The position numbers and the translations under genes were made by a program. Positions 8,801 through 12,772 of a stretch of DNA of 18,126 nt are shown here, one piece after another; positions within the stretch are counted from its first letter, which is position 1, and each line of letters begins with the position of its first letter. The DNA comes from a virus (lineage: Duplodnaviria; Heunggongvirae; Uroviricota; Caudoviricetes), in IMG/VR virus record IMGVR_UViG_2671180699_000003. One strand, given 5' to 3'. Under the pieces are notes generated by a model. That model ran no database searches. It was not told the DNA's origin and worked only from the letters and a program-made list of their open reading frames with translations.

Positions 8801-9021
8801 GCCGCACCTCCGAGATGCTTCATGTTTTTTCCGGAGCGAAAGGCTATAAGCGGCATACTGACGCGGTAATTACGGCCCAGCGGTTCACAAATCACCTTCT
8901 GACATTCACGGTCAACCAGGCTAACACGTAGAACATGCCCTGCAGGCGTGGTGTACCACTGACCGGGGCGAGGACAACGGAAAGTCTGATTGGTAAATCG
9001 TTTGAAAATATTCCGGATCAT
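8797..9021 (-). CDS. hypothetical protein, 74 aa
   Basis: AAGGGGG SD 5 nt upstream; ATGA overlaps with both neighbours. Confidence 0.4.
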   Translation of the reverse strand: MIRNIFKRFTNQTFRCPRPGQWYTTPAGHVLRVSLVDRECQKVICEPLGRNYRVSMPLIAFRSGKNMKHLGGAA

Positions 9022-10166
9022 TTGCGCCCCCTTACCTCTGAAGAGTTCAGCGACGAATGAATAAGACGGGCAAGAAATGCCGCATCGTTAATTCGGTCAT
9101 ACAGACTTACAGCCAGAGGTGATTCAGCTTTTTCCAGCATGGGATAAAGCTGCTGCAACCAGACCTGATGAATTGATGAAATGTAGGAATAGAGAACGCT
9201 GGCGTTATGTGCAACGTCGCTCGGTACAGCGGGCTTTGAAAGCTGTTTCTCCATCTGGTTAAAGGCATTGATGTATGCCTCTTTGAACTGGGCAGCACGT
9301 TTACCCGTGAAACCCATAGCAAGAAACGCAAAGCCGTCGCGGGTTATTTGATAGCAAGGTAGTTTGCGGCCTGTGCAATCGGTGTAATCACTCACCGAAA
9401 AATTGCGGGCAGTGAATGATGCGGAACATTCAAGCGTGCGGATCTTTTTCAGTACATCGTCATGACGTTTGGAGAAGAAGTTGGCAACAGCCAGGGATGA
9501 AGTAACAGCCTGACCATCAACGATGGCAATTTCAGGTTGAGTGAGGGTTGGGATCGTAGCCATGATGGCAGTCTCCGATAACAGTGAATTACCTTCACCA
9601 CCGGAAACGCCAATTTCGCTGGTGGTGAACTGAACGGGGTTGGCGTAACCGGCGTTATCGGAAACCGGCGCACCTTTCGGTGCCCCCGTCCAGCCCACCA
9701 TAATTTGGGTGTGCACAGACGCAGACGATAAAAAAGACGCTGGCGCGTCATATATCGCCGATAACATTTCCAGGACGCCAATCCCGACACCCGCTTTATA
9801 AGGTGCCTGAACAGTGTAACGTCCCGGAATGGCAGAATCAATGTGCTGGTGGTCCTTCACACTCAACAAAATCACGCCTGAATTTCCACAAAGGACTAAA
9901 GCACTCATGCGGGTAGTCTTTGCGAAGATAGATAACGCGCTGTGTTTCTGGCTCCCAACGAATAACATGGACATAAAGCCCTCTTCCGTCACGAAACCAG
10001 CGGTTAAGTTCCTGCACAACTCGCCCCCCACAGTCAGGTAAAGTTCTCTGTGGTTACTTACAGCCAGGTGATTTGGTAATCTGCATTCATGCCGTAACAA
10101 CAGGTGTTCAGCGACGCTGACCACCAGCTGTTGCGACAAACGGTTATTTGCCGTTAAACTGTTCAT
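9018..10166 (-). CDS. Rha-family phage regulatory protein with a ~200-aa N-terminal extension (382 aa; alternative internal start at 9563 gives 181 aa)
   Basis: Rha-like motifs QAVTSSLAVANFFSKRHDDVLKKIR and ITRDGFAFLAMGFTGKRAAQFKEAYINAF begin at residue ~202. The ATG at 9563 has a GGAGA SD, but the frame stays open upstream to an ATG at 10166 that overlaps the upstream stop (ATGA). Confidence 0.55.
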   Translation of the reverse strand: MNSLTANNRLSQQLVVSVAEHLLLRHECRLPNHLAVSNHRELYLTVGGELCRNLTAGFVTEEGFMSMLFVGSQKHSALSIFAKTTRMSALVLCGNSGVILLSVKDHQHIDSAIPGRYTVQAPYKAGVGIGVLEMLSAIYDAPASFLSSASVHTQIMVGWTGAPKGAPVSDNAGYANPVQFTTSEIGVSGGEGNSLLSETAIMATIPTLTQPEIAIVDGQAVTSSLAVANFFSKRHDDVLKKIRTLECSASFTARNFSVSDYTDCTGRKLPCYQITRDGFAFLAMGFTGKRAAQFKEAYINAFNQMEKQLSKPAVPSDVAHNASVLYSYISSIHQVWLQQLYPMLEKAESPLAVSLYDRINDAAFLARLIHSSLNSSEVRGRK

Positions 10167-10958: not shown

Positions 10959-11048
10959 ACAATATGTACCTCCGATATACATATTACATGATTGAGATGA
11001 ACCTTCAAGATACTTGTACCCTATCGGTACAAAGGTTTTAATTTCGTT
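10959..11048. promoter_or_regulatory. immunity-region OR: divergent PR/PRM candidates with a palindromic operator
   Basis: Palindrome TTGTACC-ctatc-GGTACAA at 11014-11032. PRM candidate TTGTAC-N17-TTTAAT ending at a leaderless cI ATG. PR candidate on the minus strand: TTGAAG-N17-TAATAT. Confidence 0.45.
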
Positions 11049-11723
11049 ATGAAAACAGTCCATGACATCCGGCGGTCTAACGCCAGAAAACTGAGAGATG
11101 GTGTTGGCGGGAATTCTTCCTTTGCCACCATGATTGATCGCGAGCCAACCCAGACCAGCAGGTTTATGGGAGATGGTGCTACTAAAAATATCGGTGACAG
11201 CATGGCACGGCACATCGAAAAATGTTTCGACCTGCCTGTCGGATGGCTTGATCAAGAACACCAGACAACAAACATCACAAAAAAACCTGATGTTTCAATT
11301 ACTAACAAACAAATAACGTTAGTCCCTGTCATATCATGGGTACAGGCCGGAGCATGGAAAGAAGTTGGCTATTCTGAGGTTGATTTGAGCACAGCAGAAA
11401 CTTATCCCTGCCCTGTACCCTGTGGCGAAATGACTTATATCTTGCGGGTGATTGGTGATTCAATGATTGATGAGTACCGCCCGGGAGACATGATTTTTGT
11501 TGATCCTGAAGTCCCTGCCTGCCACGGTGACGACGTTATTGCATTGATGCACGATACAGGCGAAACCACCTTCAAGCGGTTGATAGAAGATGGAACACAG
11601 CGTTACCTCAAAGCATTAAACCCAAACTGGCCTGAACCTTACATTAAGATCAACGGTAATTGCTCTATAATTGGTACAGTGATTTTCTCAGGAAAACCAA
11701 GAAGATACAAAATAAAGGCCTAA
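11049..11723 (+). CDS. CI-like phage repressor (N-terminal HTH, C-terminal S24 LexA-type autopeptidase), 224 aa
   Basis: C-terminal GDSM (Ser nucleophile) and TFKRL (Lys) S24 motifs; HTH-like N-terminus; divergent from cro. Confidence 0.85.
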   Translation: MKTVHDIRRSNARKLRDGVGGNSSFATMIDREPTQTSRFMGDGATKNIGDSMARHIEKCFDLPVGWLDQEHQTTNITKKPDVSITNKQITLVPVISWVQAGAWKEVGYSEVDLSTAETYPCPVPCGEMTYILRVIGDSMIDEYRPGDMIFVDPEVPACHGDDVIALMHDTGETTFKRLIEDGTQRYLKALNPNWPEPYIKINGNCSIIGTVIFSGKPRRYKIKA

Positions 11724-11734
11724 TCAATATTTAT

Positions 11735-11757
11735 AACCTGCTTCGGCAGGTTTTTTT
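11735..11757 (+). terminator. rho-independent terminator after cI
   Basis: Stem CCTGC / loop TTCG / stem GCAGG followed by TTTTTTT. Confidence 0.55.
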
Positions 11758-11761
11758 ATAC

Positions 11762-11795
11762 TTGACAATGTACCCTTGAGATACATAATGTATCT
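11762..11795 (+). promoter_or_regulatory. pL-like promoter with overlapping operator palindrome (OL)
   Basis: Consensus -35 TTGACA at 11762-11767, 16-nt spacer, -10 CATAAT at 11784-11789. Perfect palindrome AGATACAT-a-ATGTATCT at 11779-11795 overlaps the -10. Confidence 0.55.
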
Positions 11796-12226
11796 AAAAG
11801 AAACATAACACAGGCAAGATTAAACTAAATTTGGTTGTAACACGGCGTATGGCACATGCGTCGTTAGCGGTCTGGGGACGTTAAAGGGGACAATCCACTC
11901 CTTGCTCGAGCAAACAAACCAGGTAGCCGGAATGTGCAAGTCAATGATGATGCTGATAAGACGCCTAACCAGCGTGGCGATTCGGTTTGACGCCTGGGAA
12001 GAGACCAGGGTGCAACGATGAGGGCATTTATGGAACCGCGACAAAGTGTGGTGCCGTAACTGGCTAAGTGCTCTCAGCGTTGTGGTGAATGCGCAGGCTG
12101 ATGCGCGAAAGACATTGCAGCTATTGCGGAAAAGAGCTGTTCGGCGGGGCAATTAAACGCCCGTGAGAGTCTGAAATAACCGCAAGCCGGAGATCAGCAC
12201 CGGTCACCACAACAGCCACTGCTTTG

Positions 12227-12272
12227 GCGGTACCAGTTTGTACACTTGCTTCCGGCTGGTACCGCTCTTTTT
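12227..12272 (+). terminator. terminator-like hairpin in the pL leader
   Basis: 10-bp stem GCGGTACCAG ... CTGGTACCGC with a 19-nt loop, followed by TCTTTTTA. Confidence 0.4.
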
Positions 12273-12409
12273 ACAAAACAGAGAAGAGCATCACCGGACG
12301 ACGGGCTCATAACCCAATCCATCCGGGCGGCTGCCACCGCAGGTGTTCTTCTCTGTTTTGTGGAGAAACTAACCGACCTTGCAGGGTCGATATGATGAGG
12401 AGCAGCAAA

Positions 12410-12772
12410 ATGGCTAGCGAACGCAGTACTGATGTGCAGGCATTTATCGGGGAGCTGGACGGCGGCGTATTTGAAACCAAAATCGGCGCAGTTCTCAGTG
12501 AAGTCGCTTCCGGTGTGATGAACACGAAAACCAAAGGTAAGGTCTCGCTCAACCTGGAAATCGAACCATTTGATGAGAACCGTGTGAAAATCAAACACAA
12601 ACTCTCATATGTTCGCCCGACTAACCGCGGGAAAATTTCCGAAGAAGACACCACCGAAACACCGATGTATGTCAATCGCGGTGGTCGCCTGACTATTCTG
12701 CAGGAAGACCAGGGACAATTACTGACTCTTGCCGGTGAACCTGACGGAAAACTACGCGCAGCAGGTCATTAA
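12410..12772 (+). CDS. yfdP: YfdP-like hypothetical prophage protein, 120 aa
   Basis: ATG at 12410 with a GAGGAG SD; the upstream TTG extension is rejected. Length and position (immediately before a YfdQ-like gene) match K-12 CPS-53 yfdP. Confidence 0.5.
   Translation: MASERSTDVQAFIGELDGGVFETKIGAVLSEVASGVMNTKTKGKVSLNLEIEPFDENRVKIKHKLSYVRPTNRGKISEEDTTETPMYVNRGGRLTILQEDQGQLLTLAGEPDGKLRAAGH

Follow-up and report, generated by a model that had tools for sequence, protein, structure and literature searches.

The lambda 6S RNA (PR'-tR') and the StxS RNA of Stx phages are short promoter-proximal transcripts that end at an intrinsic terminator gating an operon, and StxS shows that the product of such a terminated leader can be a functional small RNA (sRNA). 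The put RNA of phage HK022 is approximately 70 nt long and has two stems that adopt a V shape with a short triplex (PMC9378689). A third RNA, sRNA-17, is 193 nt long and was identified by rapid amplification of cDNA ends (RACE) and Northern blotting in Escherichia coli K1 strain RS218, where it is encoded upstream of yfdP in an mEp460-type prophage (Sun et al. 2020; PMC7719688). Here we analyzed the leader between a PL-like promoter and yfdP (positions 11796-12409) in an 18,126-nt stretch of DNA from a member of the Caudoviricetes (IMG/VR record IMGVR_UViG_2671180699_000003), the whole of which is referred to as the window. The leader is neither empty nor a decayed gene. It is a mosaic of widely spread structured RNA modules, which the original prediction, made from the letters of this DNA, did not anticipate, and we think it probable that it constitutes a transcribed, promoter-proximal and terminator-ended cassette for a stable tRNA-shaped RNA and that its terminator also gates the early-left genes.

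sRNA-17 was located in the window by means of its published full-length, RACE and Northern oligonucleotides (PMC7719688 Table S2). The full-length primers correspond to positions 12078-12110 and to the reverse complement of 12240-12271, and the Northern probe is the reverse complement of 12140-12189. sRNA-17 is thereby placed at 12078..12271 on the plus strand, with its 5' end in the 2-nt gap between two structural elements, hairpin P0 and helix P1, and its 3' end in a terminator U-tract, and it consists of the core domain described below plus the terminator hairpin. Phage mEp460 is 99.3% identical to the window. The original prediction had listed a stable non-coding RNA among the possibilities for this leader, and the published RACE and Northern data bear this out, with the RNA ending at the very hairpin that had been pointed out. 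In the same study, no Rfam homologue was found and homologues were reported only in Escherichia, Shigella, Salmonella and phage mEp460; the Northern signal was higher in stationary phase and lower under microaerobic conditions; ArcA-P produced gel shifts on fragment 11829-12078 at 20-80 uM protein; and deletion of the RNA led to tens of differentially expressed genes and to blood-survival phenotypes (PMC7719688). Deletion of 12104-12221, for which a resistance cassette was substituted, raised yfdP approximately 95-fold (PMC7719688), which is most simply a cis effect. The published "promoter fragment" (11829-12078) corresponds to two covarying RNA elements, module A and P0, and the leader contains no sigma-70-like site. 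That paper, on the same locus, presents sRNA-17 as a solitary ArcA-regulated sRNA folded with Mfold, and says nothing of a conserved fold, of modules upstream, of a position that gates through a terminator or of a distribution beyond enterobacteria. The locus was therefore already known, while no description of the fold, the two upstream modules, the relation to tRNA slots or the cross-order distribution was found in Rfam 15 or in the searchable literature, in which sequence strings gave no match. The core may be among the 10,006 unnamed viral RNA candidates catalogued elsewhere (PMC10690425).

The core domain is a 135-nt element (12079..12213, plus strand) that was delineated by a covariance model, R1, and by covariation in two of its helices. 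It is closed by helix P1 (12079-12087 with 12205-12213), followed by an AAU junction, hairpin P2 (12091-12106; GCGCA-GGCUGA-UGCGC), an insert (12107-12185) and hairpin P4 (12186-12204), which has the form GCCGG-AGAUCAGCA-CCGGY, with a 5-bp stem that abuts the 3' strand of P1. The GCUGA of the P2 loop is complementary to the UCAGC of the P4 loop. In a set of 102 non-redundant sequences, all seven pairs of the P1 core covary and are 100% paired, the helix extending to 9 bp in the window and ranging from 7 to 10 bp across members; P4 is likewise 100% paired, with 3 covarying pairs (3 to 5 across both alignments), and P2 is 92.5% paired, its stem and the loops being near-invariant. None of the shuffled and slid controls attained the values observed for P1 and P4. 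The covariation was confirmed on 94 species genomes, in which one P1 pair is U-A in 37 sequences, G-C in 35, A-U in 4 and C-G in 3; helix 2 of this second alignment was mis-registered by insert columns and was disregarded. In one member GCUGAU/AUCAGC is changed to GUCGAU/AUCGAC, so that two compensatory substitutions preserve the loop-loop pairing; P2 of the same member has a compensatory GAGCA/UGCUC. The insert is hypervariable, with a length of 7 to approximately 190 nt. Since the helices hold G-U pairs and the tRNAs found nearby are all on the same strand, we assign the RNA to the plus strand. Model R1 scores 94.1 bits on the window (E = 1.6e-28), a value to be read as rough, as are all R1 E-values, and obtained with the window itself in the seed alignment. 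It should also be noted that homologues were collected by exact-word scans, so that all counts given here are lower bounds, and that related sequences are not independent of each other.

The covariance search against Rfam that had been suggested as a check yielded no relevant match: the leader, module A and a compact 72-nt member, searched against Rfam 15 at an E value of <=5, and the whole window, searched at gathering scores, gave only matches at chance level, far below gathering scores, for the leader and its modules. The second suggested check, a comparison of homologues for compensatory base changes, was positive for module A, P0 and the core alike. A hammerhead- or HDV-like ribozyme, considered by eye (CUGAUG...GAAA, nested pseudoknots), was rejected, as the GAAA is not conserved, the order of the helices does not fit and no Rfam ribozyme matched. 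The core resembles purine riboswitches in its three-way junction and kissing loops; a purine-riboswitch-like aptamer is nonetheless unlikely, given a terminator that is separate from P1 and found at a variable distance of 7-121 nt. A compact 70-nt variant, seen at L129 2197-2274 and at no fewer than 25 further IMG/VR loci, has the same P1 and P4 but carries UCCUGAUGGCGUCGUAAAGCGAUAGCCGUGAAU in the place of P2 and AUAGCAGCG as its P4 loop. Some inserts hold strings that resemble the D arm and T arm of tRNAs, AGCUCAAUCGGUAGAGCU and GGUUCGAUUCC (L111 1795-1969, L287 4122-4296 and L276 5702-5861), which suggests, from the letters, a tRNA-like piece nested in the core domain at these three loci; ARAGORN called no tRNA in their inserts.

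Upstream of the core lie two further structured elements, module A and P0, which together form a leader of approximately 285 nt. Module A (approximately 11842-12009, plus strand) begins some 45 nt downstream of the transcription start predicted for the PL-like promoter and was defined by covariation in 35 non-redundant homologues. Its helices are H1 (11842-11864), H2 (11871-11875 with 11919-11923), an inner hairpin (11884-11903), H3 (11961-11975) and H4 (11993-12009), and its single-stranded conserved blocks include GGUAGCCGGAAUGUGCAAG. Across the five helices, 95.2% of alignment cells are paired, compared with at most 46% when the partners are slid, and nine base pairs are altered on both sides. 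A long-range pairing proposed by RNAalifold (GGCACAU/AUGUGC) is invariant and thus uninformative, and the local hairpin H1, which contains an A-U/G-C compensatory pair, was preferred. Homologues of module A lie after trnI in phage P1, between trnI and ban, and, in Uetakeviruses, just 3' of sequences that by eye look like promoters. In phage mEp390 (Hendrixvirinae; a relative of HK022 and HK97), module A is found approximately 150 nt downstream of a LexA-family repressor gene and is annotated as a hypothetical protein (L459 528-701). Hairpin P0 (12019..12076, plus strand) pairs a 5' strand at 12019-12030 with a 3' strand at 12065-12076 and has a predicted folding energy of -24.7 kcal/mol (z = -2.9). 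Its consensus in other members is GGAAAGAGCAUUG...CAGUGCUCUUUCC. In most members a complementary partner is present 55-120 nt upstream, and in several lineages the stem is kept by entirely unlike but complementary sequences.

The original prediction had noted a hairpin with a U-tract ahead of yfdP. This is indeed an intrinsic terminator (12226..12272, plus strand), but its stem has 13 bp (12226-12238 with 12254-12266) and not the 10 bp proposed, with a 15-nt loop and a CUUUUU tract; owing to the large loop it was skipped by a simple terminator scan. The hairpin has a folding energy of -21.2 kcal/mol (z = -3.4), is identical in phage Ayreon and is homologous to a hairpin (GGCGGUG...CACCGCCCUUUUUACA) that follows tRNA-Arg in phages EC.W1-9 and BUCT711. 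The boxA-like string GCTCTTTTTACAA at 12264-12276 is the conserved U-tract tail of this terminator, which Uetakeviruses share. When it (GCTCTTTTTAC) and the 3' strand of P0 (GTGCTCTCAGC) were compared with the boxA consensus GYTCTTTAANA (PMC5725501), both failed at positions 8-9; that the resemblance to boxA might simply be the U-tract had been allowed for from the outset. The distal leader (12280..12409, plus strand) comprises a long hairpin (12280-12354) followed by GUUUUG, a second hairpin (12374-12389) and a Shine-Dalgarno sequence, GAGGAG, before yfdP. The long hairpin, which is closed by a 13-bp stem, has a folding energy of -45.1 kcal/mol (z = -2.0) and may be a second terminator or a 5' stabilizer of the mRNA (12280-12360). 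The region 12225-12415 is 96-97% identical in SfV, SfIV and other phages, despite different upstream sequence.

The window is a lambdoid prophage in which a LexA-family repressor gene, a terminator, the PL-like promoter, the leader and yfdP follow each other in this order. The CI-like repressor gene (11049..11723, plus strand; Peptidase_S24, Pfam PF00717, E = 1.5e-26) is annotated as ymfK/LexA family protein in an E. coli locus with 99.3% identity and is followed by an intrinsic terminator (11735..11752, plus strand; 7-bp stem, 4-nt loop and T-run) that is also annotated as a terminator in Ayreon. A sigma-70 promoter, TTGACA-N16-CATAAT, with 11 of 12 consensus matches in a promoter scan, lies at 11762-11789 on the plus strand, with a predicted transcription start at approximately 11796, and the same scan found no other promoter-like sigma-70 site within 11796-12409. 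An operator-like ATGTAC-N8-TACAT sequence, ATGTACCCTTGAGATACATA, overlaps the promoter at 11768-11787, and a perfect 15-bp palindrome, GATACATAATGTATC, lies at 11780-11794. Because the operator-like sequence recurs in the cI/cro intergenic region (10964-10983 and 11015-11031), the promoter is plausibly under repressor control, as is lambda PL. The first early-left gene is yfdP (12410..12772, plus strand; 120 aa), which starts with an ATG at 12410 and was assigned by phrog_204 (E = 1.2e-49) and, as yfdP, by PGAP.

Between this promoter and yfdP, approximately 620 nt contain no credible gene, and PGAP places none between the repressor gene and yfdP in the 99.3% identical E. coli locus; the near-consensus promoter with an operator palindrome and the gene-poor stretch of about 600 nt that had been predicted are thus confirmed. 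The sole plus-strand open reading frame (ORF) of at least 50 aa that touches the leader (12224-12772) is an in-frame upstream extension of yfdP from a TTG. On the minus strand there are two ORFs, 11820-12152 (110 aa) and 12194-12598 (134 aa), which are labelled hypothetical proteins in some phage records and have no Pfam match. Stop-free stretches cover most of module A on both strands, and only 28 of the 119 indel runs among its homologues are divisible by 3, that is, there is no bias to multiples of three. No conserved ORF, no Pfam match for any leader ORF and no N-like Arg-rich gene was found. The suggestion that a degraded or very small N-like protein is encoded here is not supported by these findings, and the conservation pattern is one of paired RNA.

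Parts of the leader are matched in 2,945 of 5,426 complete E. coli genomes, and the leader is 99% identical in mEp460 from 11823 on and approximately 90% identical in Ayreon, cdtI and Stx2c phages. Parts also occur in phages P1, D6 and SJ46, in epsilon15-like Uetakeviruses and in many Klebsiella, Salmonella and Erwinia phages. The core was found in >200 distinct phage or prophage contexts, mainly in Proteobacteria. An exact 25-mer, GTGGTGAATGCGCAGGCTGATGCGC, is present in at least 120 IMG/VR contigs, and an exact 19-mer in at least 120 species-representative genomes from Enterobacterales, Pseudomonas, Xanthomonadales, Burkholderiales and alpha-proteobacteria, as well as in a few metagenome-assembled genomes of other phyla, for which binning errors are possible; the full-length model matches at approximately 75 of 100 genomic loci with the 19-mer. 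On the same strand, the gene 5' of the core encodes a CI-like repressor in 19 of 125 contexts and a member of one of four Q-like antiterminator families (PHROG) in 36 of 125, the core lying 350-500 nt after Q. The genes 3' of it, in approximately 125 contexts, encode endolysins (36), Rz-like spanins (37), holins (about 30), YfdP (8) and YfdQ (8). A terminator-like site lies within 160 nt downstream of the core in 95 of 214 contexts (44%), compared with 54 of 642 control windows (8%). Among approximately 125 loci (L009-L351), the commonest position of the core is between a Q-like gene and a holin/endolysin/spanin cassette, and this leader region of the late operon also houses tRNAs and toxin genes in lambdoid phages. 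Phage P1 (AF234172) has two copies of the core on the strand of the ban operon, at 69811-69928 (69.5 bits) and 70072-70211 (33.9 bits), which are antisense to the annotated plp and upl coding sequences; both of these may be mis-annotations. In the large (157-kb) Klebsiella phage Madison, a stretch of approximately 2.6 kb without an annotated gene (L006 438-3045) contains a core (74.5 bits) and an STnc100 match and has the look of an island of non-coding RNAs. The Pas sRNAs and STnc100 of a preprint by Zhu et al. (2026) were considered and set aside, as they lie among capsid and tail genes, an unrelated context.

A comparison with Uetakeviruses revealed the relation of the core to tRNA genes. 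The order in SPN1S, BUCT711, EC.W1-9 and phiV10-like phages is module A, P0 and tRNA-Arg, preceded by what by eye looks like a promoter, whereas phage Tyrion has module A, P0 and the core, like the window. The flank ...AGUGCUCUCAGCGUUGUGG precedes tRNA-Arg in four Uetakeviruses and the core in Tyrion and the window, and the Uetakevirus tRNA-Arg starts in the shared string ...CAGCGUUGUGG precisely where P1 starts in the window and Tyrion. On the 3' side, A-CCA-GAAUCACGC follows tRNA-Arg and A-CCA-AAUCACGC follows several cores. As the leader flank, the terminator and the tails match those around the Uetakevirus tRNA-Arg, we conclude that the core occupies a tRNA slot. NCCA is present 3' of P1 in 24 of 202 contexts (12%), approximately 7-fold over chance; the window instead reads A-CAG-CCA. 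tRNA genes lie within 1.5 kb of the core in 14% of 214 contexts, and at all 30 loci they are on the same strand, with none on the opposite one. The cassette appears to be modular and horizontally mobile. Ayreon, cdtI and Stx2c phages retain module A, P0, both P1 strands, the terminator and yfdP, and the interior from P2 through the insert to P4 is replaced in them by an unrelated stretch of approximately 100 nt (Ayreon L001 ~2860-2960, compared with 12088-12204 of the window).

How does this leader compare with the systems described at the beginning? Like put, it consists of RNA only, belongs to a lambdoid phage that lacks N and lies directly 3' of an early promoter, with terminators further on. 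Unlike put, it has a closing helix, two kissing hairpins, a variable insert and a 285-nt 5' leader. The putL and putR sites were found in HK022 through their inverted repeat, and local alignment of them to the leader gave scores of 28 and 27, compared with shuffle means of 27.3 and 28.5, respectively; nor did model R1 match the HK022 immunity region. Taken as homology, the put-like element of the original prediction is therefore not supported, the fold also being unlike the V shape of put (PMC9378689). The leader may be likened, by analogy, to the 6S RNA and StxS, since it would be a terminated leader gating a downstream operon, and many cores lie between Q and the lysis genes; the copy in the window differs, however, in lying behind PL and not PR', and the fold of the core is far more conserved and elaborate. 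With the nut sites of lambda and the boxA of rrn operons, the leader shares GCUCUUU strings in the terminator tail and in the family consensus of the P0 3' strand (UGCUCUUUCC), but the P0 copy of the window reads GCUCUCA, one string is paired in P0 and the other is a terminator U-tract, and neither boxB nor an N gene is present. With tRNA-like RNAs (the tRNA-like domain of tmRNA, the bacterial Y RNA YrlA and viral tRNA-like structures), the core shares a cloverleaf-like order of helices. In the proposed structure, P1 is stacked on the 5-bp P4 and the loop-loop pairing resembles an elbow, features that, with the tRNA-gene slot and orientation and the NCCA of a subset, are tRNA-like; unlike tRNA, the core lacks T-loop and D-loop motifs as well as an anticodon arm, the insert measuring as little as 12 nt. 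ARAGORN called no tRNA in the leader, no tRNA match was obtained at an E value of <=5, and the tRNA, tmRNA and YrlA models were unmatched.

Taken together, the cassette would work as follows. Transcription would start at approximately 11796 from the repressor-controlled PL-like promoter, cross the structured leader formed by module A and P0 and enter the cloverleaf-like core, in which P1 would close the domain, P4 stack on it, the P2 and P4 loops pair and the insert take the place of the anticodon arm. Much of this transcription would end at the predicted terminator at 12226-12272, and cleavage at the P0/P1 junction, for which RNase P or another enzyme of tRNA maturation is a candidate, would release the stable RNA of approximately 193 nt known as sRNA-17. 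Expression of yfdP-yfdQ-yfdR would be confined to polymerases that pass both this terminator and the hairpin beyond it, and the core would act as a stable tRNA mimic that binds a protein or a larger machine, and not as a base-pairing sRNA or a cis antiterminator. Several points weigh against this account. The RACE 5' end, C12078, is 1 nt before the 9-bp P1, while RNase P cleaving in the canonical way would give an acceptor stem of 7 bp, and a weak transcription start could also account for this end. The published RNA was detected in a lysogen, in which a PL-type promoter should be repressed, and the promoter designated by those authors is within 11829-12078 (PMC7719688). tRNA mimicry is weakened by a P1 of 7-10 bp, the lack of a T-loop motif, the unmatched tRNA models and an NCCA in only about 12% of contexts. 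The near-invariance of P2 and the loops is inflated, as the sequences were gathered by exact 19-25-mers, and the pairing rests on few variants. Finally, the account leaves unexplained how the early-left genes are expressed beyond the terminator. A more far-reaching version is tentative, and we would not yet bet on it: the core could be a new, widespread class of tRNA-shaped phage RNA with a Watson-Crick loop-loop elbow and a hypervariable arm replacing the anticodon arm, carried by phages of many Proteobacteria, whose near-invariant 19-25 nt would contact a universally conserved host machine (candidates are the ribosome, RNA polymerase, an enzyme that processes or binds tRNA and a defence nuclease directed at tRNA), with module A as a second, independent family of leader RNAs.

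An alternative is that module A, the core or both act in cis as a processive antitermination or anti-Rho RNA, put-like in function although unrelated in fold, which helps polymerase past the 12272 terminator and replaces N/nut. No N-like gene was found, and the core occurs in both classic antitermination leaders of lambdoid phages, after cI (19/125) and after Q (36/125) and before the lysis genes, with terminators trailing it 5 times as often as in control windows; module A, in turn, follows cI in both the window and mEp390, and in Uetakeviruses it comes directly after sequences that by eye resemble promoters. The exact 19-mer across many bacterial orders would also suit contact with a universal machine such as RNA polymerase. 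Yet neither sequence nor model similarity to putL and putR is seen, the topology differs (PMC9378689) and the terminated product builds up as a discrete RNA (PMC7719688). Deletion of 12104-12221 raised and did not lower yfdP, for which a promoter of the resistance cassette may account, and Ayreon, cdtI and Stx2c phages have exchanged the interior of the core while keeping the terminator and the operon. Moreover, the core also lies beside tRNA genes in non-lambdoid phages and in the 157-kb Klebsiella phage, and from established lambda biology, Q-dependent late operons require no RNA element. We consider this alternative rather unlikely, albeit the strongest of the competing explanations.

Still less probable is the published view that sRNA-17 is a trans-acting base-pairing sRNA with host mRNA targets, transcribed from an ArcA-repressed promoter of its own in 11829-12078. 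It has in its favor the Northern, microaerobic, ArcA-P gel shift, expression and blood-survival data (PMC7719688), but the gel shifts used 20-80 uM protein, the fragment taken for the promoter consists of module A and P0, both covarying RNA structures, and has no promoter-like site, and the strongest "targets," yfdP and yfdR, are cis neighbors for which an effect is expected from polarity or from read-through of the resistance cassette. Furthermore, the most conserved nucleotides are held in helices and in the loop-loop pairing, so that there is no obvious seed, and mRNA targets would differ between hosts that range from Enterobacterales to Burkholderiales and alpha-proteobacteria. That the leader is instead protein coding, through the minus-strand ORFs (11820-12152 and 12194-12598) or short Arg-rich plus-strand peptides, or that it is a recombination or protein-binding site at the DNA level is very improbable. 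Hypothetical proteins are annotated here in some phage records, module A is largely stop free and the boundaries of the cassette act like recombination joints; against this stand the absence of a PGAP gene and of a Pfam match, indels of which 28 of 119 are multiples of 3, compensatory substitutions across helices with strand-specific G-U pairs, an insert that varies from 7 to ~190 nt, and an orientation that is always that of adjacent tRNAs.

The favored reading, a terminator-ended cassette for a tRNA-shaped RNA, turns the orphan sRNA-17 into a testable, covariation-backed structural class that crosses bacterial orders and sits in tRNA slots and in both types of terminator-gated lambdoid leader. 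Despite a leader match in more than half of the complete E. coli genomes, one descriptive paper and no Rfam family have so far been devoted to the core RNA. The "promoter" and knockout phenotypes of sRNA-17 call for a new reading, since the fragment taken for a promoter is structured RNA and cis neighbors show the strongest effects. Hypothetical proteins annotated across these RNAs, among them plp and upl of phage P1, may be mis-annotations, and the results also bear on how the early-left genes of N-less lambdoid phages are transcribed past a terminator.

Two other regions of the window are of note. A C4 antisense RNA (82.8 bits; 9618-9705, minus strand) lies back to back with isrK (61.5 bits; 9730-9806, minus strand), and both matches fall inside a predicted ORF (9018-10166, minus strand), the true gene start of which is probably downstream of the two RNAs; judged from its sequence, the region looks like an antirepressor control of the phage P1 immI type. 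The sole tRNA of the window, tRNA-Gly(CCC) at 835-908 on the plus strand, adjoins an opposite-strand ORF of 350 aa (1364-2416), and this is probably the attachment-site/integrase end of the prophage.

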